Part shown: positions 17,786 through 61,345 of the stretch, piece after piece | How the letters are laid out: every line of letters begins with the position of its first letter | Position numbering within the stretch: position 1 is the stretch's first letter | From: Acidobacteriota bacterium | GTDB lineage: Bacteria > Acidobacteriota > Vicinamibacteria > Marinacidobacterales > Marinacidobacteraceae | Assembly (NCBI GenBank): GCA_022826825.1 | Contig: JAJDUD010000008.1 | Location: 11,643-75,642, forward strand | DNA: 64,000 nucleotides | Direction of reading: 5' to 3' | Position numbers and translations under genes: made by a program | Notes under the pieces: generated by a model | What the model was told of the DNA's origin: nothing | Databases searched by the model: none | The model's input: only the letters and a program-made list of their open reading frames with translations

Positions 17786-18826
17786 GTGACGGCGGCTAGG
17801 ATGCACCCATTGGACGTCGTTCTCAGCGTCGTGTTTTGTGTCCTTTTCCTTGCCGCAATCGGGCTCAGTTTCCGAAGCGGGTCCCGAGTCACTGTTGGGA
17901 CGCTAGTGGGTGGAGGATTGGTAGTCGTCGCCGTTGTTGTCCTGCCTCTCGAGAGCTTGGAATGGAGTCCTGACGGTGGAATCAGAGTCCAGACGCGGGG
18001 GCCACGAATGCGGAATGTTGAAATCTCTGTGCACAGCGTGGCGGAGGGTATTGACACGGAGCAGCTCCACGTGTTTCTTGTACCAGTTCAACATAAAGCA
18101 GTCACCCAGACTAGAAGCGGTGACACGTTCTTCTCGTTCGAAAATGTGCCAGAGGGAGCGTACAACGTGCTTCTAGCGGACCGCGCAGGGCACTTTCTGT
18201 TGGAACCTCGTACAGTGGCAGGCGACCCTACATTGGATTCAATTGACCGGTTCCCGCGGGGAATCAACGTAAGCGGGGAAGTAAGAGAACTTACAGGGCG
18301 TCCCCTGGCAAATGTCGCAGTTGGTCTGGGAGACAACGTCGCGTGGACCAGGGCCGATGGATCCTCTGGTATCGAGGGAGCCCAATCCGGCGAACGTCAA
18401 CTGCGGATACTAGGTCGTGCACAATCACTAGAGCCGATCGAGCTGGGATCAGAAGATGTGGATGCCGGAGTTCTCTATTGGCCCGACCCCGTGCGAGACG
18501 CCCAGTTTTGCGAAGAGATTCAAGTGACTGAGGATTCGGAAGGCGAGAAGAGGTGGGTATTGGTTGACCCGTCACAGACGTTTTCCCCGGACGTTGAACG
18601 TGTGTACTTCTATACACGTGTAGTGGGTGCTACAGCACCAACACAGATAATACACCGGTGGATTCATGACGACACACCTGTTGACGTCCCTCTTGATATC
18701 GAGAGCAACGATTACCGTACAAATAGTTCTCGTCAAATCGATCGAAAGCAAGGCGAGTGGAAAGTACAGGTATTGTCGAAGTCCGGAGATATTCTCGCAA
18801 CCAGGGCTTTCTGGGTTGGAGAATAG
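17786..18826 (+). CDS. membrane-anchored protein with a DUF2914-like C-terminal domain, inside a lower-GC islet
   Basis: N-terminal TM helix followed by beta-rich domains. The tail (VERVYFYTRVVGA...IIHRWIHDDTPV...GEWKVQVLSKSGDILATRAFWV) resembles the DUF2914 signature. GC is markedly lower than the flanks. Confidence 0.4.
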   Translation: MTAARMHPLDVVLSVVFCVLFLAAIGLSFRSGSRVTVGTLVGGGLVVVAVVVLPLESLEWSPDGGIRVQTRGPRMRNVEISVHSVAEGIDTEQLHVFLVPVQHKAVTQTRSGDTFFSFENVPEGAYNVLLADRAGHFLLEPRTVAGDPTLDSIDRFPRGINVSGEVRELTGRPLANVAVGLGDNVAWTRADGSSGIEGAQSGERQLRILGRAQSLEPIELGSEDVDAGVLYWPDPVRDAQFCEEIQVTEDSEGEKRWVLVDPSQTFSPDVERVYFYTRVVGATAPTQIIHRWIHDDTPVDVPLDIESNDYRTNSSRQIDRKQGEWKVQVLSKSGDILATRAFWVGE

Positions 18827-18919
18827 GTCAATCTATAACACGCACTGCTTGCCCACTAACCTACGAGTAGGCGGACTCCGGCGAACCACAAATGGCACGA
18901 CTCTGACACGGTCGCGCCC

Positions 18920-19333
18920 TTGTTTCCCACGATGAAGAAGCTACCATCGTGGGTGTTACCTACTCTGGTTGTAGGAGTGCTCCTTGTTCTGTCCTCCCTC
19001 TTGCTGGTGCGCCTATGGAGTTCGGTGGTCCTTCGGGCTCCATTTTTCGGTCGTTTGGAACCCGCCACGCTCTCGGCCCTTTCCCTCCAAGTCGTCTTAC
19101 TGTCCGCGTTCATTACGCTGTCGAGCTTCATGGTTGCCATGATCGCGTTTCTTGGCTACCGCCAGATCAAGGAGGCTGCGGTGCAGAAAGCCGTCACCGC
19201 AGCAGTGGATAAGTGCCTGGAGCGAACCGACACTGCCGTAAGTGAACGTCTGAATGAGGTTCTTGGATCCAGGGTAGAAACCGGGCCCTCTCCAGAACCA
19301 GAACTAACCGAAGAGGTCTCCGAGGAGGTCTAG
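18920..19333 (+). CDS. small two-TM membrane protein with an acidic coiled-coil tail; true start may be MKKLPSW at 18932
   Basis: Two hydrophobic helices, then a KEAAVQKAV...EEVSEEV tail. The stop lies 2 nt before the ImmA-like gene start. Confidence 0.4.
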   Translation: MFPTMKKLPSWVLPTLVVGVLLVLSSLLLVRLWSSVVLRAPFFGRLEPATLSALSLQVVLLSAFITLSSFMVAMIAFLGYRQIKEAAVQKAVTAAVDKCLERTDTAVSERLNEVLGSRVETGPSPEPELTEEVSEEV

Positions 19334-19335
19334 GG

Positions 19336-19818
19336 ATGGACAAGGAAGAATTGCTGGAAGTCATCCGGTCCCACCAGAAGGAGGCTCCGGTACCCGTCTT
19401 TAACATTGCGCGAGCGATGGGACTGACGGTACTTCGTGCCCGTTGGCCCGACGAGTGGCAGGACAAGATTTCTGGGCAAATACAACGAATCCCTGAGACA
19501 GATCAATACCGGATTCTTCTGAACGCGGCGCATCCACTAACCCGGCAACGGTTTACCTTGGCCCACGAGATCGCCCACTTCGTTCATCACAAGCATCTGA
19601 TCGGAGATGGCATCACTCACGACGCCCTGTACCGAAGTCCACTGTCCACACCGCTGGAGCGAGAAGCAAACCGGCTCGCCGGGAACATTCTGATGCCTTG
19701 GAGCTTGCTTTGGCCCAAGATGTTTAGAGCAGAAACGGACGTGCGGGAGTTAGCGGCGGAGTTCAAGGTTTCTCCAGTAGCAATGGCCATCCAGACCGGG
19801 ATTCCCTACGAGCCGTGA
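19336..19818 (+). CDS. ImmA/IrrE-family (M78) zinc metallopeptidase
   Basis: HEIAHFVHH HEXXH motif in the ImmA/IrrE context, ...EREANRLAGNILMP..., about 160 aa. Confidence 0.65.
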   Translation: MDKEELLEVIRSHQKEAPVPVFNIARAMGLTVLRARWPDEWQDKISGQIQRIPETDQYRILLNAAHPLTRQRFTLAHEIAHFVHHKHLIGDGITHDALYRSPLSTPLEREANRLAGNILMPWSLLWPKMFRAETDVRELAAEFKVSPVAMAIQTGIPYEP

Positions 19819-20340
19819 CCGCCTGAAGCTAGCCGCGAACTGCCGATTTCGGCACAAAAGCAAATGCGAGACCAGAAGATGTCGGCCTAGAAGGCAGCCT
19901 GCCGGGTTGATGCGATAGGTAGCGAGATCCTCGAACGGAGTCCGCAATGATCCTCTGAAGTCTTGCCCCGACGTCATGCGTGAACTGGCCTGCGGCTACT
20001 TGCTTCGCGCTTTCCACGGTTTGCGGGCTGCCCCTAGTGCCGCATCTAGGACACTTGGCGGATCCGTCGCTGCAGCCGTCAGCAATAACCTGACACCTAG
20101 AGCAAATCAACACTAGTGCTATGCCATCAGCCATTGCGCTCCGCCACCAGAGTCGTCATCACCTACCACCATGGAGAGGATCCCAAGAGAACCCTTCTGA
20201 TTGCGCGTCTCTAGCACGCTGAACGGGAGAAGTCAAACGCGCGACTGTCTAGTCCAGGTGCAGGGCCTCCACAGCGAGGCCTGTATAACGCCAGCGGTAA
20301 ACACCGCACTACGCTTCTTCCGGAAGGCATCAGGATTCTG

Positions 20341-22479
20341 CTATTTCGCTCGGCCGAGAGCGGGCCACAGCGTGACGACGAATCGCTCTTCACGGACCGG
20401 AATGCGCACACGGCCCCGCATTCCGTCGTAAAGCGCGTGTTCCGCGCCGGTGCTGCTCAACAAGACCTCCGGCAGGTCCGCATACACGAGGGCCAGCGCC
20501 CCATCTTCGGTCCCCGTGGGCAGGAGTTGGCCCATAAGCGCTCGCGCCTCTTCCGCGCTGATTACCTCCGGGCTGACCTCGCGGGCCTCGAGATGGAAGC
20601 GGCTTCCCGGGAACTGTTCCAGTTCGGCCACCACCGGGATCCCGGACGCGAGCAGGGGACGGAAGTTGCCCGGCACGGCGGCCACGATCTCGAAACCCGC
20701 ACGGGCGGCCCGCACCGTAGCCACCGTCTGGCCGGGATTCACGAGCGTCCCCGGCCTTACCCGTACGTCCGTCAGCACCCCACCCACCGGCACGATCAAC
20801 TGCCGTTCTTCAAGATCCGTCCTTGCCTGTTCGCTCGCGCCGCGCAGGGCCGCGAGCCCATTCCCCACCGTGGGATCCTCCGGGTTCCGCAACAGCCGCA
20901 CCAATGCATCCTCGTACTCGTGCTCTAGGCGCCGCACCTGTGCGAGTTCCGCGTGGTCGTAGAGCGTGCCGATGACGTCCCCCGGAACGACCTCCGTCTG
21001 GGGAGCGATGTGGATGGCCGCCACCGTGCCCGCCTCATTCGCCACCACAGGCACCCGTCCTTGGCTGTGGACGACCGCCATCCCCTCCGCGTACTCGGTG
21101 GCCGTTCCGAAGATCAGGAACGCCGCAAACGCGAGCAGCAGTGCCGCCATGCCGCCCACGATCCAAGATCCCCACCGCTCGGAAACGTTCAGGATGGCGC
21201 TCGGGCTCTCGGAGCGCCGCTGTTCCGCGATCGCTTCGGCGCGGAACACGGATGAGTCCACTCCGACCTCCCCTTGAAGCCGGTGGTATTCCCGAAGGAC
21301 AGCGAGCGGCGGAGCGAAGTCGCTGGCGAGCCGGCGCGCCGTATCCAACAGTTCCGGTCGGAGATGGTCGTGGGCGTCGGCCGCGTGGCACGCGAGCACC
21401 CCAAACACCGTCCCCGAATGGTCCCGGATGGGAACTGCCATCAGTCCGTGTCCGGCCCCTGGCACGAGATCCAACTCCGGATCGAAGAACACCGCGTCCT
21501 CCACGCGTTCTTCGAGCACCGCCACCCCAGACCGCGCGACGTAGGCGATCATGCCGAGCGCCGCGCTATCCGCGAACTCCTCCTGCTGCACGGCGTGGGG
21601 TCCCAGAAGAACCTCCGCCCAATCGTCGTAGGCGTACACCGTCGCCGTGATGTCCGGCATTCGCCGCTCCGCCTGAGCCGCCAAGTCCCGCAACGCGCTC
21701 TGCGCCGCACGTCTCTGTCCACGACTCGTGGCGTCGTACCACGCGAATGCCGGGAACCCGTCCTCGGTGTCCGGTCTCGGGTGAACGAGTTCGCGAAAGA
21801 CCCGCCGGAAGACAGCATTTTCGAGCGCCGCCACCGCCAGCGGGCCGAGGCGGTCCGGGTCCGGCCACCCACTGCATGCGAAGAAAACCTCGCCGGAACC
21901 GACGATGTCGCTCCAGCGGTCGGACATCACGCCCCCGCTTGCGACGAGAATCGGCCGAAGTCCGGGCAGTCGTCGGACGGTGGACCGCACCGACGCGACA
22001 TCGGGTGCCCGGTCTGGCGCACAGCCCAGCAGCAGGGCTCCCACGCTCTGCGGGTTCTGTACTTCCCGCGCGTGGACGATCTCGATCCCCTGTAGGGCCG
22101 GCGTCGCGCGACAGGGCTCGATCGCCCGTTCGTCATCCACGGCGAGGACCACCGGGACCCGGTTCGCAGCCGCGAGGGGAGAACTCGTCCAATCCTCCAC
22201 CAGCGTGAGAACCAACATCTGCACCGCGTTCTCACCACTGCCGTGCGCTGCACCCAGCCGCAGGTCCGCAACTACGGACCAAGCGCTGCCGTTGCCGGAA
22301 CCGAGACGGGCCGTGATCTCCATTCCTTCCATCGCCCCGTCGCGCACCATCACCGCCTCCGCATCCCGGACACACACCCACACCACGCCGGGACCCAGAC
22401 AACATACCCACGCGGGTAATGAAGCACCACCTGCTACCCGAAGCTGCGCAGGCCCTGAGACCCGGCGCCAGCCCTTCAC
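20341..22479 (-). CDS. fusion protein: N-terminal cytoplasmic region with a pseudo-receiver-like segment and a GAF domain, then a TM helix and a CvaA/LcnD/HlyD-type bacteriocin membrane-fusion domain
   Basis: The C-terminal 320 aa begin SVFRAEAIAEQRR...WIVGGMAALLLAFAAFLIFG, the classic N-terminus of CvaA/LcnD-type membrane fusion proteins, followed by a long periplasmic coiled-coil/beta region. The preceding ~390 aa include a GAF-like block (MIAYVARSGVAVLEERV...GLMAVPIRDHSGTVFGVLACH). 4-bp overlap with the upstream ABC gene. Confidence 0.6.
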   Translation of the reverse strand: MKGWRRVSGPAQLRVAGGASLPAWVCCLGPGVVWVCVRDAEAVMVRDGAMEGMEITARLGSGNGSAWSVVADLRLGAAHGSGENAVQMLVLTLVEDWTSSPLAAANRVPVVLAVDDERAIEPCRATPALQGIEIVHAREVQNPQSVGALLLGCAPDRAPDVASVRSTVRRLPGLRPILVASGGVMSDRWSDIVGSGEVFFACSGWPDPDRLGPLAVAALENAVFRRVFRELVHPRPDTEDGFPAFAWYDATSRGQRRAAQSALRDLAAQAERRMPDITATVYAYDDWAEVLLGPHAVQQEEFADSAALGMIAYVARSGVAVLEERVEDAVFFDPELDLVPGAGHGLMAVPIRDHSGTVFGVLACHAADAHDHLRPELLDTARRLASDFAPPLAVLREYHRLQGEVGVDSSVFRAEAIAEQRRSESPSAILNVSERWGSWIVGGMAALLLAFAAFLIFGTATEYAEGMAVVHSQGRVPVVANEAGTVAAIHIAPQTEVVPGDVIGTLYDHAELAQVRRLEHEYEDALVRLLRNPEDPTVGNGLAALRGASEQARTDLEERQLIVPVGGVLTDVRVRPGTLVNPGQTVATVRAARAGFEIVAAVPGNFRPLLASGIPVVAELEQFPGSRFHLEAREVSPEVISAEEARALMGQLLPTGTEDGALALVYADLPEVLLSSTGAEHALYDGMRGRVRIPVREERFVVTLWPALGRAK

Positions 22480-24710
22480 GAATCGTCTCCTGTAGTTCCG
22501 CCCTGCTCAGGCGCCCGTACGAGCGACGCGTATTCACCGTCCAGACTCAGCAGGTCTCCGTGTCTGCCCTCCTCAACGAGATGTCCCTCCTTCAGGACGA
22601 AGATACGGTCCGCGTTGCGGATTGTGTTCAGCCGCTGGGCGATCACGATCCTCGTGCAAGCCAGCCGCGCCAGCCGCGCCTGGATCTTCGCCTCCAGCTT
22701 CGTGTCCAGATTGCTCGTCGCTTCGTCCAGAATCAACACCGGAGGCCCGGTGGCCACCGCCCGCGCCAGCGCCAGACGCTGCATCTGTCCTCCCGAAAGG
22801 AGGAACCCGCCATCGTAGAGCATCGTGTCGTAACCCAGAGGCAGTTTCGCGATGTCATCGTGTATGGAGGCAAGTCGCGCGGCCTCAATCACCTCCGCGA
22901 GCGACATGTCCGGGTTGCCGAGCGCGATGTTCTCGCGAACAGTATCCGCCGCATACCAGTCAGTCTGTGTCACCGTGCCGATCCTGCGACGCACCTCCCG
23001 AAGGTCCAGGGTGGCGAGATCGGTTCCCGAGTACAACACGTGCCCGTTCGTGGGTTCGTAGAGTCCGAGCAACAGTTTCGCCACCGTGGACTTCCCCGCC
23101 CCCGACGGCCCGACGAACGCAACAAATTCCCCCGGGTGGATCGTGAAGGAAACGTCCTGCAAGATGTCCGGGCCCGAATCGCTGTAGCGAAACGTAACGT
23201 GCTGCATCGAGACCGTCCGTGGGTCCACATCCGTCCCAGACCCACGCACCCGACGCTCCGGTTCTGTCTCGATCACGTCCTCAATCCGGTCCACGTAGCT
23301 ACCGAGCAGGTAGATGGACGAAATCGTTCCCACTAGTTTCGACAGCGGTCCCAGGAACCCCATCGCGAAGGCGTTCATCGCCAACATGACCCCAAGGGTC
23401 ATGTGGCCGTCCAGGACGCGCATTGCCCCAACGATGAGAATCAGCATGCCGCCCACGCCCGAGAGCGCACCAGTGATGGCCCCCACGGTCGCGTTGAGAC
23501 GGTTCTGCTCGATCCCGATGTTCAACTCCTTCACGAACAGGTCCGTCCATTTCCGGGCCACCTCGCGCTCCGCGCCAATGGATTTGAGCGCCTCCATTCC
23601 CGAGAGCATCCGCACTTGGTAGCTCCGTGCCTCGGCCTGCCGTTGTATCGACTCCGAAACGAGTTCGCGCAGACGAATTCGCGTCACCGCGAACACCGTG
23701 ACCCGCAGCACGCCGAGCAGCACCACGAGCCCGGCGACCACCACGTCCGTCAGCAGCATCAGGACCAGGTACGACAGCACGAACAGCCCGTCGAGAACCG
23801 CGGAGAATGCCGTTGAGGTCAGCGCACTGCGGATCTGCACATGGCTGTTCATCCGCAGCATCAGGTCACCCGACGAGCGGTTCTGGAGATATGAGAACGG
23901 CAGGTCCATCAGCCGTTCAACGAACGATACGGTCAGCCGGGCGTCAATTCGCGACATCACCTCCACCGCAAGCCGCGAACGTACGAAGGAGAACAGCGTC
24001 GAGAACCCGGCGATCCCGATCAGCGCAATGGCCACCGTCAGCAGCAGTCCCTGGTCTTCCCGAGGTACGATTCGGTCCACTAGTAACGCCGTGAACAGCG
24101 GAATTGCCGTTCCGAGCACCTGGATCGCTGCCGACATCGCGAGAAGCTGCGGCAGGTGTCCGGAGCGCAGGATGACTCGCGCGTAATCACGCAGGACACC
24201 GCGTCCACCGGCCTTTTGCGTCCGGAACGTGTCCGTCGGCCACAACTCCACCGCCACCCCGGTGAAGTTGCGGCTGACCTCCTCCCAGGTCACGATCCGG
24301 CGGCCCGCCGCCGGATCCATTACCCGGATCCCCCGTTTCACGACCCGGTCCAGCACCACGAAGTGGCTAAACCGCCAGTGCAGGATCGCGCCGCGCTGCA
24401 GGCGGCGCAGATCCTCGATCGCATCCACCCGCAGGCCCCGTCCAGCGAGCCCGTGCTGCTCGGCGAGATGCAGCAGATCCGCGGCGTTTGTCCCATCGCG
24501 GCCCGCGGTCAGGTGGTCGCGGAGCGTATGTACGGGAATGTGTTTGCCGTGGAACGCCAGCACGCTCGCCAGGCCGGCGAGACCGCACTCCGTCGCGCCG
24601 GTCTGCTGGACCACCGGCACGGACCGTGGGCGACGGAGCGACCCGATCCCCGTGACCCGCGGTAGCGAGCCCAGGAACGACGGACGCGAGGGCTCAGCCA
24701 TCGGTGTCAC
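22476..24710 (-). CDS. lanT: peptidase-C39-domain ABC transporter (double-glycine leader-cleaving peptide exporter, LanT/CvaB-like)
   Basis: N-terminal C39 domain with catalytic Cys (QTGATECGLAGLASVLAFHG), a six-TM ABC exporter domain, Walker A GPSGAGKST, signature LSGGQMQR and Walker B ILDEATS. Confidence 0.85.
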   Translation of the reverse strand: MTPMAEPSRPSFLGSLPRVTGIGSLRRPRSVPVVQQTGATECGLAGLASVLAFHGKHIPVHTLRDHLTAGRDGTNAADLLHLAEQHGLAGRGLRVDAIEDLRRLQRGAILHWRFSHFVVLDRVVKRGIRVMDPAAGRRIVTWEEVSRNFTGVAVELWPTDTFRTQKAGGRGVLRDYARVILRSGHLPQLLAMSAAIQVLGTAIPLFTALLVDRIVPREDQGLLLTVAIALIGIAGFSTLFSFVRSRLAVEVMSRIDARLTVSFVERLMDLPFSYLQNRSSGDLMLRMNSHVQIRSALTSTAFSAVLDGLFVLSYLVLMLLTDVVVAGLVVLLGVLRVTVFAVTRIRLRELVSESIQRQAEARSYQVRMLSGMEALKSIGAEREVARKWTDLFVKELNIGIEQNRLNATVGAITGALSGVGGMLILIVGAMRVLDGHMTLGVMLAMNAFAMGFLGPLSKLVGTISSIYLLGSYVDRIEDVIETEPERRVRGSGTDVDPRTVSMQHVTFRYSDSGPDILQDVSFTIHPGEFVAFVGPSGAGKSTVAKLLLGLYEPTNGHVLYSGTDLATLDLREVRRRIGTVTQTDWYAADTVRENIALGNPDMSLAEVIEAARLASIHDDIAKLPLGYDTMLYDGGFLLSGGQMQRLALARAVATGPPVLILDEATSNLDTKLEAKIQARLARLACTRIVIAQRLNTIRNADRIFVLKEGHLVEEGRHGDLLSLDGEYASLVRAPEQGGTTGDDS

Positions 24711-24740: not shown

Positions 24741-25688
24741 TCACTCTTCGAGAGATCCGGAACAGTCGAGAGCTAGCTCACCTTCGGCCAGTTGCGGAAC
24801 GGCCAGCACGCGCACCGGAGTTCCGGCCGGGAGTTCGTCCGAGCACAGGAGCGCCTCAAAGGTGTGCAGGAGCGTGCGAGGATCCAGTTCGGGAGAGGCG
24901 TGTATCACGAACCCGAGCACCGGCTCATGGTCCTCGAAGGTCACGGTGATCGGCGCGCCGGCAGAGAGTCCGATGGTCGCCTCGGGCGGCGCCGCGAAGC
25001 GAACGTGCCATTCGCCCGCTTCGATCGCCACCACGGGCGCCCCCCGCGTGTCGTACATCCCAGGCGAGCCGTACACCTGGTCCACCACGCCGCCTAGCGG
25101 TGCGCGCAGCGTCGCCTTGGCCGCTTCGGCGCGCGCCTGTTCCGCAGCCGTTCGCGCAGCCCCAAGTCGCGCCTCGGCGGACTCCAGACGCGCCCGGGAC
25201 ACCTCCACTTCGGCCTCCACTTCCTCGAGTTGTTCCGTAGAGAACAGCTCGGAGCGTCCCTTGCGCCGCGTGTAACGGCTGGCGGCCTGCTCCATCTCCA
25301 CCTGTGCAACCCGCAGCGACGCCTCCACTTCGGCGACTGCTGCCTGCGCCACTGCAAGAGTCCGGTCCACCGATTCAGAGTCGAACCGCGCTACTGGTTG
25401 GCCCTCCTTTACCTCGTCCCCCGGCTGTACGAACCGCTCCAGTAACCGGGCGTCAAACGGCGCCGGCACAACAATCCGCCGCTGCCGTACCACGACCCCG
25501 ACATGACCGTAGTTCGCGGGAAGCAGGCCCGGGACTGGCCTACCCACACTCACTCGTCGCTGCGACCCGGATGGCACCGGACCCGGACGCCGCCGTTCCG
25601 GTTCGCTGCCGTCGCCACAACCGACCCAGGCAGCGAAGGCGACCAATCCCGTCGCCAGAAACGCGCCATGTGCTGCTCTGTAGCTCAC
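24741..25688 (-). CDS. HlyD/RND-type periplasmic adaptor lipoprotein
   Basis: GTG start gives a signal with lipobox AAWVGCG. Coiled-coil hairpin, then ATLRAPLGGVVD, a typical adaptor beta-barrel motif. The start overlaps the lanB stop by 4 bp. Confidence 0.6.
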   Translation of the reverse strand: MSYRAAHGAFLATGLVAFAAWVGCGDGSEPERRRPGPVPSGSQRRVSVGRPVPGLLPANYGHVGVVVRQRRIVVPAPFDARLLERFVQPGDEVKEGQPVARFDSESVDRTLAVAQAAVAEVEASLRVAQVEMEQAASRYTRRKGRSELFSTEQLEEVEAEVEVSRARLESAEARLGAARTAAEQARAEAAKATLRAPLGGVVDQVYGSPGMYDTRGAPVVAIEAGEWHVRFAAPPEATIGLSAGAPITVTFEDHEPVLGFVIHASPELDPRTLLHTFEALLCSDELPAGTPVRVLAVPQLAEGELALDCSGSLEE

Positions 25689-28600
25689 CGTTTCGCGCGC
25701 GCCACCAACGAACGATAGGTCCGGCTCAGGAAATCGTAAAGCACCAACTCGTGCGCTCGCGCCGACATGGGAAACAGCCGGTTCGCGTGCATGTGGGTCA
25801 GGGTTTGCAGCAGTTCTTCGAGTGGGCATTCGAGGTCACCAGACTCCGCCAAGTCCCGGAACTGTCGGACTACCTCCTTGGTGTCTTCGGACCGCTGCTG
25901 CAGGACGGCATCGAATCCGGCGAATCGGGAGTCATCGTCCGGGTATCCGGTAACCGCCGCTTGGATATCCCGGCGCTCCGCCCGCAGCCGTCTCGCTAGG
26001 CGCCGCCGTACACTGGGGCCCACTCCGAACTCCTGTCCGAACGACTCCCGCGCCCCGGCAACAACCTGGTTTCTTTCTCCGTAGTCCAGTCCGAAGTCTG
26101 CAAGCAACCGGTCAAAACCCATCGCCACTGCCTTCCACCGGAGGACTTCATCCTCCACCCCGTCGAGCACTCCGACGACCTGGAGCGCCGCCACACTGTC
26201 CGCCCGAAACCACGCTTCTGCCAGTTCGATCCCCCGCCCCCCGCCATAGCGTTCGACCTCGCGCACGTAGGTGTCGAGGCTCACGCGATGGACGGCACCG
26301 GTGGCCAAGAACGGCTGGAGGAGCGCCGACATCCGTTCTTCCAGCGCCCGACGAGCATCCGGCCCGCCTCGAAACCGGACGCGCAAATGGTGTTCCGGGT
26401 CTCCGTACCGGATGAAAAACCACGGCTCACCCGTCGCAGTGGCTCCGTGGAGCGCTGCCAGCGGCGCGACGACCTCGCGGAGCAGCCGATCCGCCGTGCC
26501 AGCGGCAGCGTAGAGCTTGTAGTAGAGCCACTCGTCTCCCGGGATGAAGGCCCGGGAAGCGATTGGTGCCGTCACGTTCCGCTGCTTTACGCCGTCTTCC
26601 CTGACCGAGGGCGCGGCCCGCTGCCTGCGCACGAGCGGAAGGATGAACTCGTTCCGGTAAGTCCCCTCGGGGCCGCTAACGCAGCCTTCCAGATCCTCAG
26701 CGAGCGTCTCCTCTAGAACCAGGGTGGGTCGGCGCGCCCCATGATCCGCCAGCACCGCCACGCACATCGGGTTGTCCAGATCCAGCAGCAGACGGTTCTC
26801 CCCATCGACGAGACGAACGAAACGCGGAAGCTTCAGCTCCCGAACCAGGGCCAACAGTGCGTCCTCACGGGCGGCGGGCTTCTTCGCCTTCGCAATGGCT
26901 TTGTACTCCGGACGATTGCGTCCCACCATCCAGCGGGCAAGCGCGTAAATGGCACGACCCCGGGTCACTCGCGGCAGGAACGGAAGTCCGTTCAGCACCC
27001 CCCAGTTCCAGCTGAACCCCGGCGCCGTCCCGTCGTTCTGGAGCGCGCATAGAAACCGATACATCCCGGAACTACGTCGATAGTTGTGGGCTGAGGTAAG
27101 GCGTGGGCGCACGATCCTGCCGTCCTGACGCGAGCGCAGCCGAAAACTGCTACCCTCCAGACTCAGCAGCAGATCGTCCACGGTCAGCCGCTTCGGACCG
27201 GTGAGCCGCGAGTTACCGCTACAACTCAACTCGATGTCGCGGACATGAGGTCGTCGCACGACATTGCCGACTCTACCCTCCGGTGTGTGCACGATTTCGG
27301 CATAGACCACCCCGGGTTCCAGCGCCTCCTCATCTCGAAGGTGGCCGCGCACCCGCTCGAGCAACACGGGGTCGAGATCGCAGAACCTTCCCAGCAACCG
27401 GCCACCCGACGGGCCGAAGCCGCCGTGATAGAGGATCCGATATGCGCCGCTCTGCACGGCCTCCTCAGAGGCAGCCACTAGATCAAAGTGGAGTGCCACG
27501 GCCGCTGGCAGAGGGCTCTGAACCGAGGTCGCGAGGCGTGTGAGCAGGTCATCGTCCAGTTCGAGACTCGCTGGGGCTTCACCCCGGAGGTCCAGGAGGC
27601 GCTCCATCAGCGCGTCCGGCACGCCCTGCTGAGGGCTTTTTCCGCGGTTGCCCTCTGCCCCGATGTTGAGGCCGGCAAGGAGCGGCGATCCTGACTGACG
27701 TGGTCGCAGATCCGGACCAGGCACACCGAGTCCCCGTTCCGGATCGAAAACCTCTGCTAGCGGAACCTCGCGTGTCTCGTACCGCTCCCGGAAGCGGCTC
27801 TTGAGGTCACGCAACGGATCCGGTAACCGCGTCATCAGGCGGTGTAACGTGTCGGCACCGCGAAGCACCTCGTCGACGACCTCCTCGGCGAGTTGCAACT
27901 CTTCGGTTTCCTTGAACATGTCCACCTGGAGGAGCCGCTCGGTTTTCTTCTGACCGAGAGGCCCGGTCCACACCGCGTTCACCGCCGCGTACGCCTCGGG
28001 TGGTGCCGCCACTCCATGCTCGTCGAGCTGGTCGAGCGCTTCGCGTAGCTGCCGGACCGGAGTGGCTGACTCGGACAGCGCCTCGCTCGCAGCGAGAGCC
28101 TGAAGGATCTGGTCCAGCGGATCGCTACCTACGACCGCAGGCACCAGCTCCGGCACGAGCACCTGCGACTCGATGAGGTCGTCAAGGTACTCGTCGATGT
28201 CGTCCGAGTTCACATCCGCATCAGTGATGGCGAGCGTCAACGCGGCATGTAATCCAGCCAGCGGCATCGCTTTCGCGGACCGCCGCTCCAAGGCGGCCGA
28301 AAGCGCTTCGTCATTCTCGAGAAACGCCATCTCGTGCCGGTTTTCGGGACCGCGCTGTCGCGCTTCCACATACTGGTACCCGCCCGCAATGGCCGCGATC
28401 GTGTCGTTGGGGCGGTAACGGAGATTCTTCCGGACTCCTTGTTGCCTCAGGAGGCTACCGACCAACTTGGCCACCTGCGCTTGGTCAAGTGCTGAGCGAC
28501 GCCGGTAACGGTCGCGCCCAGCAAGTCTCAGGCGCGTCAGTTCGCCTACGTTCCCCACGGATACACCGGCGAACAGGCCGAATGGCGTGCATCGGTCGCA

Positions 28601-30214: not shown

Positions 30215-30689
30215 GTTCTTTGACGGCTGTATTGTTCCCGTTAACCTGAAGGACCGGTTTGACTGGCCGCGCTCTCCGGCCGATCAGGCTCAGTCACACG
30301 GCACATCGAATACAAGGTTCAGCTACGCACACCAAGAGAGTCACGAGCGCAGGGTCGGCGACCGCTGCCGGGCCAGCTACGAGCGTAGAACAAACGTAAT
30401 CCCAGCGGTTTATCGGTGTCCGGAGCAAGAGTAGCGATTCAGCGAAGAACACGCACGGTCACTCCGGTTACCGGCGTACGTGTCACCTTAAGGGCGCGCA
30501 CAAGTTCATTCGCGCCTACTACCCGTAGGTAAGTGTGAGCGCACGTGGTGCTTTGCCCGTATCGCTTGTCTCCTCGTAGCCTGCCCGTGGCCTGTTGCTC
30601 TCGGATTCACCTCGTTGACCAGAACTGGATAGTCAAGCGAGCGCCGACAAGACATCAACGCGCTAAACAGCTCTGCCAGGAACCCCCGG

Positions 30690-31028
30690 TCAGCAACCTT
30701 GGTTGTTTTCCGAGTCGCAAAGACCACAGCCAGTGCCACACGAGTAACCGCATGTTGCATCGCATGTGGCATTGCACGACGCTTGACCACAGTTCGTGTC
30801 GCAGGTGGCGGTAGGGCAATCACAAGTACCCTGGCACGCCGAGACGTTGTCACAAGTATCCCCCACGACGGTCTGGGGCTCGACCCTACAGTCACCGATG
30901 CCATAGGTACATCGATCAGTATTTCGTGGTTGAGTTGGGAGGGGGTCATCGCCACCAGCGACACCGGCTAGCCGATCTTGGCTGAGCGATACGAGATTAC
31001 GTTTCTTCAGACGTAGTTTCTTCTTCAT
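30690..31028 (-). CDS. lanA: lanthipeptide precursor LanA: double-glycine leader plus an 86-aa Cys/Thr/Ser-rich core
   Basis: Internal ATG gives MKKKLRLKKRNLVSLSQDRLAGVAGG followed by DDPLPTQPRNTDRCTYGIGDCRV...CGTGCGLCDSENNQGC. The leader fits LSxx(E)LxxVxGG. The core has 15 Cys and 16 Ser/Thr, with recurring TCD/ATC units. Local GC is lower than the genome background. Confidence 0.7.
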   Translation of the reverse strand: MKKKLRLKKRNLVSLSQDRLAGVAGGDDPLPTQPRNTDRCTYGIGDCRVEPQTVVGDTCDNVSACQGTCDCPTATCDTNCGQASCNATCDATCGYSCGTGCGLCDSENNQGC

Positions 31029-31068
31029 GGTGCTGCACCTCAGGCAGCGTGGATGGTCGATTGGAGTG

Positions 31069-34100: not shown

Positions 34101-34644
34101 GGGAGGAGTTCGTCTGGTCGGACTGCTTCACCCAGAACGGGTCGCCGGTGTGGACCACGTTCGGCGTGCCCACCGACATGATGAACACGTTGCGGCCCGG
34201 GGTCGGCAGGACCTCGAGCTCCGCTCGGCTCACCGCCGAGGACACCGAGGCGGTCGCGGTCTCGATCAGCGGCGTCTCGCCGATGACCGTCACCGTTTCC
34301 TCGATGCCACCGATGGCAAGCGAGGCGTCCACCACCAGGAACGAGGCAACACCCACGAGAAGGCCCTCGCTCCGGAACGGGGCGAAGCCGCTCAGTTCAG
34401 CCTGGAGCGTGTAGGTGCCGGGCTGGACGTTGGCAAAGCTGTACTCGCCGACCGCATTCGAAACCGCGGTCCGCGAGACGCCGGTGTCCTCGTTTTCGAT
34501 GGTCACGGTGACGCCGGGAAGGACACCCCCGTCGGGGTCCTGAATCACGCCCCGGACGCCGCCCTGGAACGTCTGGGCGAAGGCGCCCGCAGTGAGTCCC
34601 AGGACGCCGAGCACCGCGGCGGTCCTAAACAAAAGCGATCTCAT
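31132..34644 (-). CDS. TonB-dependent outer-membrane receptor with an N-terminal carboxypeptidase-regulatory-like domain
   Basis: Internal ATG (MRSLLFRTAAVLGVLGLTAGAFAQ) gives a signal peptide. CarbopepD_reg-like Ig domain (GGVLPGVTVTIENEDTGVSRTAVSNAVGEYSF), a plug and a ~1000-aa barrel ending in ...TLQFMTKFTF, with a terminal aromatic residue. Confidence 0.75.
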   Translation of the reverse strand: MRSLLFRTAAVLGVLGLTAGAFAQTFQGGVRGVIQDPDGGVLPGVTVTIENEDTGVSRTAVSNAVGEYSFANVQPGTYTLQAELSGFAPFRSEGLLVGVASFLVVDASLAIGGIEETVTVIGETPLIETATASVSSAVSRAELEVLPTPGRNVFIMSVGTPNVVHTGDPFWVKQSDQTNSSLLSLGGGPLRGNNYTVDGVSTTDLRNRTVIIPVFEAVQEMKVQINTYDAEMGRTGGGVFNVIHRTGTNAWAGSALHQFRPSKVGQFLREYYYHTAQDVAAGKLSDSDISERPYILLGGSFGGPIFRDRTFFWVSGEGYNDDQASNVTITLPTPAEAAGDFSASGVTIYNPFDLDANGNRRPFPGNVIPAHMIDPAGSSLARVLTELGPGGDIAASGIQRTQARQLTGNLSHTFSEAWQSSLTYLYYTSEEPAFGHYKDLLNAETHPAYGIGAASLGRDVHAVAFNNTFITGDTSVLTLRYGQTFFNDSNSNPVFDQSAFSGLGFQGGFINSIYGQEGYDGQFPSVSIEEYGDGGSTHGSWSNTDVQWTSREVNGTFSQFLGNHTVKYGVQFRRMGLHSVRFNNGLQLSFDRSFTRGPNPDSPDAASGNALADMLLGIPSGGQATVAEPADVFINYYGVFVQDDWRPSANLVLNLGLRLEHESGLMEDDNGFAVGWDRTNPFPIQVGLDPAIEGSLPGFPLRGGLMYAGIDGAPTHQWDPPGIKIGPRIGFAYTLNPETVIRGGYATFWAPYAIPSGVGASDVGTFGYTAVTSIATSLDGRTPPEATVANPFPNGIDNPVGNAKGRFQNIGGNVYFNEQHRASPYIHKWSLDIQRDIGRDLAFKVGYVGSAGADLPIGGTNNSVININQLADQYVALGDRLNDQYPNPFYGDSRFGSFAGAETLPLGQLLRPFPHFRNVLARHVSAGKSLYNSARIEFEKRFRDSWGARINYTMAIHNDNIYESNTRLADEESTIFNTPDDCATGKCSVLDADYGPSRIHVPHQFNIALNYRIPGDNPIFSGWSLSTQTILRSGFPLTLKQSSNPLAAYGFDHQRPSGGGVSGGGNPSGSHLNYLSPGNVAQTDGFVLGSGPHTTDTVRTPVLHTWDVALDKTTTIFSDVNLNLRFEMLNLFNSPNWCGPRTVVGNSNFGQIQCSSGFPRTLQFMTKFTF

Positions 34645-58393: not shown

Positions 58394-61345
58394 CTAGAAC
58401 TCCAGGCGGAAGGCGAACTGCGCCGCCCGCGGACCGTAGGCGGTGGAAGTGATCTGTCTCGGAGCGCCGAAGCTGCTCGAGTCGAGGACCCCGTTGTAGC
58501 GGCCGTAGTTCTCGTGGTTGAGCAGGTTGAAGACCTCGGCGATCGCAGAGACTCTCACCGGTCCGAAGTTGAAGATCTTCGAGAGGCGAACGTCAACCTT
58601 GTGCAGCGCCTCGCCCAGCAGCGCGTTCCTCGGCGCCTCGTTGCCGGGGCCGGTCCCGATCACGTCGGGTCCGTCGAAGCGATGCAGAACATCCGGATTC
58701 ACGATGATCGGATCTCCAAGATTCAGGCGATTCCGGCTGGCACTCTTCCCGTACGGCCGGCCGCCGACGGTCGTATCGAAGCGGTTTCCGGAGCCGTAGA
58801 AGTAGGCGCCCGAGATCGAGAAGTCGTACGGAAGCTGGTAGATCCCGTTGATACGGAACGTGTTCCGCTGAAGGTCGAGGGCGTTGGCCCACTCGGCGTC
58901 GGGGTCGAACGTGTTGTTGGGGAAGTCGAACCAGCCACGGGTGTCGTCACGCTTGAAGAAGATGTAGGTGTGCGTCACGTTGACCTGGAAGTTGTCCCGG
59001 AACCGGCGTCGCAGCCCGCTGGAGAGCCCCAGGTAGTCCTGCTTGCCGGTGCTCTCGATGTAGCGGATCCGGGTGAAGTTGGGATCCAGCCGGCCGGGCA
59101 CGTTGTAGCCCGTCACCGGATCGTAGATCTGGTTCGGGTCGGTGGCGCGCGGGGTGTTGGTTTCCTTCCAGTGGAGCAGATCGGTCTCGAATCCCCACAA
59201 CGTACCGAGCTGCTTCTGGAAACCGATCGAGGTCTGCCACGTGTACGGCAGGGCGAAGTTGTGGGCGATCGTCCGCGGCGCCTGGGGCGGAACCGGCACT
59301 TCACCGTTCAGGATCTGCTGCGGCGTCACTCCCCGGGTGGGATCCTGCAAGAAGCCCGGCATCCCGTCGTTCGGGAAAGAGTTCACCAGAATTCGCTGAC
59401 CGTTGAAGGACTGCTGGCTGAACGTGACGTTCGACGAGCTGATCGTGTGATAGATGCCCGATCCGCCGCGAATGACCAGATCGCCGGTACCGCCGACGTC
59501 ATACGCGAATCCGCCGCGGGGCGCGAAGTTGTTGGTGTCGCGGATGTCCCACTTGAACAGGGAGTCTCCGGCCTGGCGGCCCTCGCTCGGTCCGGCAAAC
59601 GGCGTCATGATGTCGTTGCCCGGCGGCGCCAGAGCACCCCAGTCCAGGTCGTAGCGGACGCCGAAGTTCACGACCAGGTTGTCGTTCACCCGCCAGGTGT
59701 CGGCCAACCAGACGGCCCAGGTCGGACGGGGGATATCAATGATCCAGTTGCCGACGTTCTGGCTGAAGCGGGCCACCGTGTGGTCGAGCCCGCTCACGTC
59801 CCAGCAACTCGGGTTGGTGGCGCACTCGATAGGGAAACGGCGTTCGAGGTCGGCGGGACGCTCGTTGAAGATGAACTCGCCCCTCTCGAGCAGGTGCCAC
59901 TCGCCGCCGTCCTTCCAGCTCAGGAACTCGCCGCCCAGTTTCAGGTCATGTTCCGTCTTGTCCCAGTTCAACTGAAAACGGGCGGAGAACACGTCCTGAG
60001 TGAACAACTGCGGGAAATTCCGCGGTCCACCGAACGTGATCCCCGGAAAGACGTAGTTCGGTTGACAACTGGACTGATCCTGCTGTGGCTGGCCGAAGGT
60101 CTGGTCACAGCCGCCAATCGAAGCATCGGCCAGCTTGTTCGTCCACTCGAAGCCGTTGTAGCCGAGCTTCAACTCGCTGAAGATTTCCGGGCTCCACAGA
60201 TGACTCCACGTCGCGAGCACGTTCGTTGAGTCCTGCGTGCGCGCCCGGGCGTTTGAAGGGTGCGCTGAACTCGACAGGTTGAACGCGGTCTCGAAATCCC
60301 AGTAGGAGACCCGGTAGGAGAGCTGATCGTTGTCGGAAGCGGTGTGATCGACGCGGGCGGTGAAGCTGTTCTGCGTTTCCGGCGTCTCGAACACCCACTC
60401 CTGGTTCGGGAGGCGGGCCGGCTGGACGAAGACGCTGCCCGGCTGTCGCTCGTACTCGTACGAGACGAAGTAGTGGACCTTGTCCTCAACGATGGGGCCA
60501 CCGAGCACCCCACCCACCTGCTGGTTCTCGAACGGCAGCACTTCTTCGGCGATGTGATCCTCGGCGTTGAAGCGGTCGTCACGGAAGTACCCGTAGAGGC
60601 TGCCGGTGAAGTTGTTGGTGCCCGAGCGGGTGATGGCGTTCACCTGCCCTCCGGAGGAGCGGCCCTGGGTAACGTCGAATTGACTCGTGACGATCTGGAA
60701 CTCGGCGATGGCCTCACGGCTGAACTTGGGTTGACCGAAACCGGAACTCGCCACCTGCTGGGTGATCTGCTGGCCATCCAGATTGAGCTGGAAGCTCTCG
60801 TCCCGGGTGATGCCTGGACGATTGTTGTTGGTGTCGTTGGCGGTGATGCCCTTCACGAGCAGGGCGAGCTCCATCCAGTTGCGCCCCTGCACCGGCAGGT
60901 CGTCCATCATGCGGCGATCCACGTTGCCGGCCACTTCCGAGGACACCAGGTCCACGAGGGGCGCCTCCGCGGTGACGGTGATCGTCTCCTCGACGCCCGC
61001 GAGCGCCATCTGGATCGTGATGTCGGCGTTCTGACCCACCAGCAACTCCATCTCCGGCACGACCATGTTGGCGAAGCCGGACAGGGTCGCTTCCACCCGG
61101 TATACGCCGGGTGGCAGCGCGGGCGCCCGGAACGCCCCCGAGTCGTCGGTTACCGCCACGGTCTGCCGCCCGGTGTTGTTTTCGACGACCAGGACCGTGA
61201 CCCCGGGGAGAGCGCCTCCGGAGGTGTCCTCCACCGTTCCGGAGAGCGTCGCGGATTCCTGGGCCACCACGGCGACAGGGAGCAACAGAAGGCCCGCGAA
61301 GGCGAGCACCGACCACCGGCACATCCAATTCTGCATGACAGCCAC
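58394..61345 (-). CDS. TonB-dependent outer-membrane receptor with an N-terminal carboxypeptidase-regulatory-like domain, second copy
   Basis: Signal peptide. Ig-like GGALPGVTVLVVENNTGRQTVAVTDDSGAFR, a plug, and a long barrel ending ...QFAFRLEF. Confidence 0.7.
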   Translation of the reverse strand: MAVMQNWMCRWSVLAFAGLLLLPVAVVAQESATLSGTVEDTSGGALPGVTVLVVENNTGRQTVAVTDDSGAFRAPALPPGVYRVEATLSGFANMVVPEMELLVGQNADITIQMALAGVEETITVTAEAPLVDLVSSEVAGNVDRRMMDDLPVQGRNWMELALLVKGITANDTNNNRPGITRDESFQLNLDGQQITQQVASSGFGQPKFSREAIAEFQIVTSQFDVTQGRSSGGQVNAITRSGTNNFTGSLYGYFRDDRFNAEDHIAEEVLPFENQQVGGVLGGPIVEDKVHYFVSYEYERQPGSVFVQPARLPNQEWVFETPETQNSFTARVDHTASDNDQLSYRVSYWDFETAFNLSSSAHPSNARARTQDSTNVLATWSHLWSPEIFSELKLGYNGFEWTNKLADASIGGCDQTFGQPQQDQSSCQPNYVFPGITFGGPRNFPQLFTQDVFSARFQLNWDKTEHDLKLGGEFLSWKDGGEWHLLERGEFIFNERPADLERRFPIECATNPSCWDVSGLDHTVARFSQNVGNWIIDIPRPTWAVWLADTWRVNDNLVVNFGVRYDLDWGALAPPGNDIMTPFAGPSEGRQAGDSLFKWDIRDTNNFAPRGGFAYDVGGTGDLVIRGGSGIYHTISSSNVTFSQQSFNGQRILVNSFPNDGMPGFLQDPTRGVTPQQILNGEVPVPPQAPRTIAHNFALPYTWQTSIGFQKQLGTLWGFETDLLHWKETNTPRATDPNQIYDPVTGYNVPGRLDPNFTRIRYIESTGKQDYLGLSSGLRRRFRDNFQVNVTHTYIFFKRDDTRGWFDFPNNTFDPDAEWANALDLQRNTFRINGIYQLPYDFSISGAYFYGSGNRFDTTVGGRPYGKSASRNRLNLGDPIIVNPDVLHRFDGPDVIGTGPGNEAPRNALLGEALHKVDVRLSKIFNFGPVRVSAIAEVFNLLNHENYGRYNGVLDSSSFGAPRQITSTAYGPRAAQFAFRLEF

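Follow-up and report, generated by a model that had tools for sequence, protein, structure and literature searches.

The DNA considered here, referred to as the window, is a 64,000-nucleotide (64-kb) stretch of contig JAJDUD010000008.1 from an Acidobacteriota bacterium. Its subject is a small gene on the minus strand, lanA, which very probably encodes the precursor peptide (LanA) of a class I lanthipeptide. The lanA open reading frame (ORF) spans window positions 30690-31028 and encodes 112 amino acids (aa), divided into a 26-aa leader and an 86-aa core; the translated peptide is MKKKLRLKKRNLVSLSQDRLAGVAGG (leader) followed by DDPLPTQPRNTDRCTYGIGDCRVEPQTVVGDTCDNVSACQGTCDCPTATCDTNCGQASCNATCDATCGYSCGTGCGLCDSENNQGC (core). 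A biosynthetic cassette with the order lanC-lanB-HlyD-C39/ABC-HlyD begins 475 bp downstream on the same strand, and a gene for a large outer-membrane protein, also in this orientation, lies 103 bp upstream (Table 1).

Table 1. Features of the lanA locus, in window coordinates and in the order in which the minus strand is read.
Feature	Position	Strand	Basis or remark
Oar-type TonB-dependent-receptor-like protein, 1170-1203 aa	31132..34743	-	CarboxypepD_reg + OMP_b-brl_4, E 1e-137
Shine-Dalgarno-like GAGGTG, 7 nt 5' of ATG	31036..31041	-	ribosome-binding site
Leader, 26 aa, MKKKLRLKKRNLVSLSQDRLAGVAGG, Gly-Gly end	30951..31028	-	translation; LxLxKx5L fit; NF038153 alignment
Core, N-terminal part, residues 27-56: Pro-rich stretch, then DRC...G.C (two Cys)	30861..30950	-	
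Core, Cys/Thr-rich repeat part, residues 57-112, end SCGTGCGLCDSENNQGC	30693..30860	-	Cys positions and spacing
12-nt tandem duplication, 2.3 copies, encoding neighbouring NATC / DATC	30749..30776	.	Tandem Repeats Finder and repeat search
Stop codon TGA	30690..30692	-	read from sequence
Spacer lanA-lanC, 475 bp, without second precursor	30215..30689	-	ORF scan, family profile
LanC lanthionine cyclase, 416 aa	28964..30214	-	Pfam LANC_like, E 4.6e-31, 108 bits
LanB dehydratase, full-length, 1081 aa	25685..28930	-	Lant_dehydr_N 482 bits, Lant_dehydr_C 208 bits
HlyD-type periplasmic adaptor	24741..25829	-	HlyD_3, RND_mfp; start codon uncertain, ORF overlaps lanB end
C39 + ABC membrane + ATPase transporter	22476..24710	-	Peptidase_C39, ABC_membrane, ABC_tran
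712-aa protein, C-terminal HlyD-like domain, last cassette gene	20341..22479	-	HlyD_3 / HlyD_D23, residues 558-645

The lanA ORF is a genuine gene under coding constraint in its frame. Read from the sequence, the reverse complement of 31029-31043 is CTGAGGTGCAGCACC, which runs directly into the ATG. A family hidden Markov model (HMM) built without the window sequence has a single match among the six-frame ORFs of the window, lanA itself (E 1.3e-8), and no other family precursor is found by such a model within the 64 kb. Against the homologue at a related locus, L009, 27 of 53 identical residues are encoded by different codons, and the nucleotide differences at codon positions 1/2/3 number 33/32/65. 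This pattern, with its synonymous changes and its excess at third positions, therefore indicates selection on the lanA reading frame. An earlier interpretation made from the letters alone (the sequence-only reading) had named missing codon support, or a real precursor elsewhere, as ways in which lanA could fail; the codon comparison supplies that support. Translation and counting likewise reproduce the peptide and the counts it gave (an 86-aa core with 15 Cys, 12 Thr and 4 Ser), and its remark that the gene is lower in G+C (GC) than its surroundings holds, at 55.2% for lanA compared with 68.0% for the window; lanC is at 61% and the outer-membrane protein gene at 63.5%. The 475-bp gap that it named as one place where the real precursor might lie exists, and a precursor there is rejected: an ORF scan found neither a leader-like nor a Cys-rich ORF there, and the family HMM found no second precursor. 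The same spacer gave no match in an Rfam scan, and its predicted RNA folding is not better than that of shuffled sequence (z -0.79). Spacers between lanA and lanC in related loci measure 142-392 bp. A promoter scan found none, and terminator-like matches were weak.

The lanA peptide is one of a family with over 80 members, defined by a conserved leader and variable x-x-(T/S)-C cores. A word-index homology search with the single window peptide gave no match, and an exhaustive phmmer search with it against 1.84 billion representatives gave one, the relative P0001 (E 5e-5); the family is visible only after a profile search. Relatives of LanC with 52-64% identity occur in five metagenome-assembled genomes (MAGs) of Acidobacteria, at loci L001-L005. 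Each of these loci carries the complete lanC-lanB-HlyD-ABC-HlyD cassette, with one or two small ORFs a short way upstream that consist of a leader like that of lanA and a Cys/Thr-rich core. A profile built from ten precursors beside LanC relatives retrieved 81 relatives at E<=1e-3, none of which is named in any source. Cassette and precursor recur together in at least eight other loci (L001, L002, L003, L004/L012, L005, L009, L013 and L015), the named sources of which are Acidobacteria MAGs, and every LanBC cassette examined is accompanied by a family precursor. A metagenome scan with LanC added one locus only. At L013 (10113-12751 and 12873-15394), two tandem LanC genes, together with a 633-aa protein without Pfam match and a third precursor, all located between LanC and LanB, constitute a variant cassette architecture. 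Four members (P0013, P0015, P0018 and P0026) carry the precomputed Pfam accession PF27846.1, for which local Pfam returns nothing; PF27846 may already cover the precursor family or its leader.

The window leader contains the LxLxKx5L signature (L5-R-L7-K-K9-RNLVS-L15, with L5, L7, K9 and L15 as the signature residues) and ends in G25-G26. The LSxxELxxIxGG consensus to which it had been assigned from the sequence can also be read off directly, with Leu at -12, Ser at -11, Leu at -7, Val at -4 and Gly at -2 and -1; Asp stands at -9, and Arg at -8 instead of the usual acidic residue. Walker et al. (2020; PMC7268733) described leaders of the LxLxKx5L...GG type in Bacteroidetes, on LanAs of class I, and the clusters that carry them often encode a C39 protease (PMC7268733). 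Double-glycine precursors are known substrates of class I enzymes in Gram-negative bacteria, those of the viridisins being one example (PMC9680876). Judged by its motif, the window leader is better labelled as class I LxLxKx5L...GG than as a generic bacteriocin double-glycine leader. The model NF038153 (lant_leader_L1a, "class I lanthipeptide") aligns with window residues 1-26 and ends at the Gly-Gly. Several homologues reach its cut-off of 22 bits, which is an annotation threshold and not a biochemical criterion (P0001, 30.6; P0013, 28.2; P0002, 25.1; P0033, 22.0). Throughout the family, the frame from the first Leu to G-[GA] spans exactly 22 residues in 81 of 81 sequences (80 relatives and the window), following the pattern L x [LIV] [RK] [RK] R x4 L [TS] [ED] x Q [ML] x x [AV] [AV] G [GA]. 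L-22, R-17 and G-2 are invariant and L-12 is present in 80 of the 81, and mean pairwise identity is 59% for leaders compared with 44% for cores.

Residues 57-112 of the core contain 13 Cys, mostly spaced by four, with Thr or Ser usually immediately before the Cys. All of the recurring units listed by the sequence-only reading (DTCD, GTCDC, ATCDT, NATC and ATCDA) are found in the core. The tandem duplication under the neighbouring NATC and DATC units suggests that the core has grown by duplication of four-residue units. The preceding Pro-rich two-Cys stretch (PxP, DRC, G.C) is common only to the window and its closest homologue, P0001, and most members are without it. The C-terminal 18 residues are nearly identical in the window and P0038/L009 (SCGTGCGLC(D/P)SENN..C).

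Statistics were compiled over 84-86 family cores, including that of the window. Core length ranges from 40 to 86 aa with a median of 52, and the window core is the longest of 84. The "giant" core of the sequence-only reading is thus real in its 86 aa, yet it is the extreme of a family range and not a one-off. Cores carry 8-17 Cys (median 12; window 15). A spacing of four residues from Cys to Cys is the commonest in the family (466 of 901 intervals) and predominates in the window. The residue before Cys is Thr in 63% and Ser in 8%, hence Ser or Thr in 71% of 1005 Cys. Family cores consist of 21.7% Cys, 16.9% Thr and 13.1% Pro, with 4% His and 0.1% Lys; they are net acidic, and many begin with HPH. 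Subtracting the Cys number from that of Ser and Thr gives -2 to 0 for 75 of the 86 cores and +1 for the window (16 vs 15). The Cys count is odd in 47 of the 86 cores, the window among them, and even in 39. This coupling of Ser/Thr to Cys, combined with the lack of a preference for even Cys counts, fits one-to-one thioethers better than a disulfide fold. A Pfam search with the peptide gave no match, and at E<=10 neither Pfam with three isolated cores nor a PDB sequence search with the core gave one; this, too, argues for thioethers rather than a disulfide fold.

The cassette genes provide the enzymes that such a precursor would need. Motif-level evidence is available for LanC and the C39-ABC transporter, and LanB is assigned by both of its dehydratase domains. 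The GVAHGVPG (HG), WCYG and CHG motifs of LanC align with the solved LanC-like protein 8BYK, and the best solved relatives of LanB are 9G04, 5EHK (lantibiotic dehydratase) and NisB (4WD9). In the transporter, the Peptidase_C39 domain covers residues 31-160 (E 1.1e-27) and contains the catalytic motifs QQTGATEC43G and HFVVL; the protein, which is 75-93% identical in L001-L005, is predicted to be both the protease for the Gly-Gly leader and the exporter. The HlyD adaptor is conserved in every cassette locus. The 712-aa protein is 51-80% identical in L001-L005; only its C-terminal ~150 residues are HlyD-like, and the N-terminal ~430 residues, conserved in L001-L005, have no Pfam match. Seven cassette and flanking proteins were scanned, and no radical-SAM domain was found among them. 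Directly past the last cassette gene, at window 18000-20340, lies an island of 53-57% GC. It holds a 137-aa ORF (18920-19333) together with a Peptidase_M78/ImmA-like gene (19336-19818), and such pairs are typical of mobile elements. A block gained by horizontal transfer may have its edge here; low GC is also seen in lanA, the spacer and lanC.

Family precursors also occur away from LanBC. Contigs L006-L008 carry P0001 and a second precursor and are syntenic with the window (nucleotide identity 81% for an FAD oxidoreductase gene and 72% for the outer-membrane protein gene). They continue directly into unrelated genes, LanBC being absent from the nearest 9 kb, and L010 is organized likewise. A proposed synteny between the TPR gene of the window and a TPR/cytochrome gene of L006 was rejected; the match is an 80-residue, repeat-level one, and it therefore does not decide between insertion of the cassette in the window and its loss in L006. 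The 4.48-Mb MAG OZ251549.1 carries at least six precursors at four loci, with the LanBC cassette beside one of them (L012). Two precursors are located at L012, and further ones lie 260 kb (L016; 8001-8267), 350 kb (L014; 10001-12004) and 2.5 Mb (L017; 8001-8297) away. At L014, two tandem precursors are followed by a 2-oxoglutarate (2OG)-Fe(II) oxygenase gene and a CutA1 gene. The oxygenase could be a tailoring enzyme for the Pro- and Asp-rich cores, and CutA1 could indicate a link to metals.

Nearly every family precursor adjoins a gene for an Oar-type protein (CarboxypepD_reg + OMP_b-brl_4), even where LanBC is not nearby. In the window, the likely start of this protein is Met34 at 34644, where a signal peptide begins, and an orthologue with 72% identity precedes the homologous precursors in L006 and L010. 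Oar-type neighbours are positioned at L001 5087-7999, L002 2820-5696, L006 1122-4631, L012 6964-9888, L016 4687-7590, L017 8873-11980 and L018 9218-12343. They fall into four lineages and one sub-lineage (A, A', B, C and D), with 22-32% identity between lineages and 56% between A' and A. The exceptions to adjacency are two loci with IS21 insertions and L014, where the gene is 4 kb away. A second Oar-type protein of the window (58394-61345, minus strand) is 28% identical to the lanA neighbour and has no precursor beside it; such genes are therefore common in this genome, which matters when the adjacency is judged. The pairing suggests that the peptide works with the Oar-type protein, which may serve its passage or export across the outer membrane or act as its receptor. 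Oar of Myxococcus xanthus is a TonB-dependent transporter with an N-terminal CarboxypepD_reg extension that is required for PopC secretion, and it shows that proteins of this subclass can take part in export (PMC6434023). The window protein resembles it in domain architecture, with CarboxypepD_reg at the N-terminus and a large beta-barrel after it. In contrast to Oar, it has no Pfam Plug match at E<=0.01, and its cargo would be a small modified peptide delivered through an ABC transporter rather than a protein.

Other genes recur around the precursors. IS21-family IstA/IstB genes or fragments are found at L003 (7478-8446, minus strand), L005 (6668-8661, plus strand) and L018 (8416-8766, minus strand). 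At L003 they stand between the precursors and the gene for the outer-membrane protein; at L005 they are placed immediately upstream of the precursor, and no gene for such a protein was found there. Genes of the erythromycin-esterase family (PF05139), frequently as tandem copies, are found again and again no more than a few kb from precursors (L006 7491-8951, L010 7629-9089, L012 1006-5439, L013 440-4875, L016 8824-10245 and L018 3822-5255); tblastn found no homologue of the L006 esterase in the window. TPR/multihaem-like and FG-GAP/ASPIC genes also recur near precursors.

The preferred reading is that the lanA ORF encodes the LanA precursor of a class I lanthipeptide, the substrate of the adjacent LanBC in a Gram-negative host. 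A probability of about 0.8 is assigned to it because of the leader type, the cassette synteny, the enzyme domains, the family and the core statistics. Enzymology, leader type and export route group it with the known class I lanthipeptides of Gram-negative bacteria. By analogy with established class I biochemistry, LanB would recognize the leader, glutamylate Thr and Ser of the core with glutamyl-tRNA as donor and eliminate the glutamate, giving dehydrobutyrine (Dhb) and dehydroalanine (Dha) at up to 16 sites. LanC would add Cys thiols to these dehydro residues, forming up to 15 (methyl)lanthionine rings. Since Thr-Cys pairs recur every four residues, two regular topologies would be possible: Dhb(i)-to-Cys(i+5) rings that overlap along the chain, like an extended form of the interlocked D/E rings of nisin, or back-to-back four-residue Cys(i)-to-Dhb(i+3) rings. 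Ser or Thr is present at -3 to -6 of 89% of Cys and at +2 to +4 of 72%, statistics that do not separate ring topologies; both are compatible with these positions, and the attempt to infer ring partners in this way was dropped. During export with the HlyD adaptors, the C39 domain would cut after Gly26. The mature product would be acidic, nearly lysine-free and heavily cross-linked, with up to 86 residues, and a product with many small rings is plausible. A nisin-like pore-forming action seems unlikely because of the acidic composition and because no nisin-type lipid II motif is seen in the core.

Several points weigh against this assignment. The chemistry, namely dehydration, ring number and ring topology, is inferred throughout. 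The window leader scores 17.7 bits (E 0.0029) with NF038153, below its annotation cut-off, and has Arg at -8 where 75 of 81 sequences carry Gln. The composition of lanA is atypical, at 55% GC without third-position GC bias, and composition is therefore unusable as support for the ORF. LanBC adjacency is not universal: the contigs of P0001 and P0057, 14-18 kb long, include the outer-membrane protein gene but lack LanBC, and other precursors lie hundreds of kb from a cassette. The position of the mature N-terminus is uncertain, and trimming may remove the 30 residues, Pro-rich in part, with which the core begins. Finally, AlphaFold2 with an 81-sequence alignment gave no confident core fold (pLDDT, its per-residue confidence score, 42-47 over most of the core); this speaks for the assignment and against an autonomous fold, but is weak evidence in view of its poor performance on small Cys-rich peptides.

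A different outcome, already raised in the sequence-only reading as a disulfide-rich product, is that the peptide is secreted unmodified or only disulfide-bonded, like class II bacteriocins or microcins, its Gly-Gly leader serving C39 export and LanBC being inactive or marginal on it. The precursors without nearby LanBC in L006, L010, L014, L016, L017 and L018 speak for this, and the Cys density would suffice for a disulfide knot. However, the leader type is that of class I lanthipeptides, each examined LanBC cassette has a precursor, the window offers no other candidate substrate, and the genome with dispersed precursors also holds a cassette. A disulfide fold would leave unexplained that Ser/Thr numbers track Cys and that Thr adjoins Cys in 63%. 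Odd Cys counts, including the 15 of the window, also argue against it, as does the absence of matches to known Cys-rich domains in Pfam and PDB. The disulfide-rich product is disfavoured, and an unmodified or disulfide-bonded peptide is unlikely overall.

Metal binding as the main function is likewise improbable, and slightly more so. The peptide would be metallothionein-like or a metallophore, coordinating metal through thiols or thioethers, Asp and His, would be handled by its TonB-dependent neighbour and would carry lanthionines partially at most. The almost constant position beside Oar-type genes of several lineages agrees with this, as do the acidic, nearly lysine-free cores with 4% His and frequent HPH starts, the excess of one or two Cys over Ser+Thr in most cores, and the CutA1 and 2OG-Fe(II) oxygenase genes that follow two precursors at L014. 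Nevertheless, Pfam and PDB show no similarity to metallothioneins or other metal-binding families, no signal of metal regulation was found, although none was sought, few free thiols would be left if most Cys become thioethers, and Oar-type proteins are numerous in such genomes (two in the 64-kb window). A metal-binding function is compatible with the LanA reading. The weakest alternative is that the ORF arose by chance in GC-rich DNA or through misassembly, the true precursor lying elsewhere, for instance in the 475-bp gap. It could appeal to the missing third-position GC bias, a GC content 13 points below that of the window and overlapping ORFs in other frames, but it is hardly credible and was rejected in view of 81 homologues with the same architecture, the synteny with no fewer than eight further cassette loci, the coding-constraint substitution pattern, the ribosome-binding site and the lack of an alternative precursor in the gap or the remaining window.

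The LanA reading can be carried further. One LanBC/ABC cassette might mature many dispersed precursors, as a class I counterpart of the prochlorosin system, into ladder peptides of 10-15 rings, each precursor being paired with its own Oar-type protein as ligand or cargo (metallophore, signal or secretion substrate) and not acting as an antibiotic. This extension is doubtful; if true, it would represent a lanthipeptide/receptor pairing not described so far. The TonB-dependent pairing and the scattered precursors point to a role other than classic lantibiotic killing.

In the literature searched, whose coverage was incomplete (a Chem 2023 paper on marine Acidobacteria, for example, lay outside it), no description was found of the precursor family, of the four-residue Thr-Cys repeat core with its size and Cys load, or of the family size, the Acidobacteria-centred distribution and the outer-membrane-protein pairing. 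The acidobacterial clusters treated in a coral-microbiome paper (Nature, 2026) are of class II and class III and do not include the present one. Repeated overlapping i-to-i+5 rings or reversed Cys-to-Dhb i+3 rings are unreported for any lanthipeptide in the literature reached. If LanBC turns most of the 15 Cys into thioethers, the product would be among the most densely cross-linked ribosomal peptides known, and the locus would be a natural test of one LanB/LanC pair on a repetitive substrate far beyond the usual 20-40-residue cores. With its x-x-T-C repeat grammar, the core lends itself to a clean test of the factors that determine ring direction and ring size. So far, members of this large family, which no public source names, are confined to marine Acidobacteria. 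With its unusual substrate and unexplained outer-membrane partner, the lanA family is a good genome-mining lead. Marine Acidobacteria are hard to culture.

Among known systems, the closest parallels are the double-glycine class I lanthipeptides of Gram-negative bacteria: the pinensins of Chitinophaga, PedA15.1/15.2 of Pedobacter lusitanus, the thalassomonasins, and the viridisins (VdsA1/A2) of Thalassomonas. The window shares with this group separate LanB and LanC enzymes, an LxLxKx5L leader with a Gly-Gly end and a C39 protease/ABC exporter in the cluster, and in both cases several precursors per organism are possible. Unlike them, the window core has 86 aa and 15 Cys arranged in x-x-T/S-C repeats (family medians, 52 aa and 12 Cys), it is acidic and nearly lysine-free, the host belongs to the Acidobacteriota, and an Oar-type neighbour is constant. 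The Cys-Xaa-Xaa-Xaa targets of radical-SAM enzymes (TIGR04117) also have Cys at every fourth residue. The TIGR04117 model gives a faint match to P0057 (E 0.038, 14 bits; cut-off 50) and none to the window peptide; a radical-SAM Cxxx peptide was rejected on account of the sub-threshold score, the lack of a radical-SAM domain among the seven proteins scanned and the lanthipeptide leader.

The prochlorosins, class II products of ProcM acting on many dispersed ProcA precursors, resemble the situation in OZ251549.1, where many precursors combine a conserved Gly-Gly leader with variable cores. In contrast to prochlorosins, the enzymes here are class I LanB and LanC and not LanM, the leaders are not of the Nif11 type, the cores follow one repeat grammar, and the 64-kb window has a single precursor. 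Nisin and subtilin (NisA, NisB and NisC) differ in other respects. The window leader has no FNLD-type box, and it would be removed by the C39 ABC transporter and not by a subtilisin-type LanP. Compared with nisin, the core is ~2.5 times longer and anionic rather than cationic, and no lipid II-binding SxxxCTPGC motif is seen in it. The predicted chemistry is shared with nisin and subtilin, comprising glutamylation and elimination by LanB and cyclization by a LanC with Zn-ligand motifs. Rings D and E of nisin arise from a T-x-T-C-x-C stretch, in which an adjacent Thr-Cys pair takes part in overlapping (interlocked) rings. By analogy, these two rings are a possible model for the repeat of the window core.

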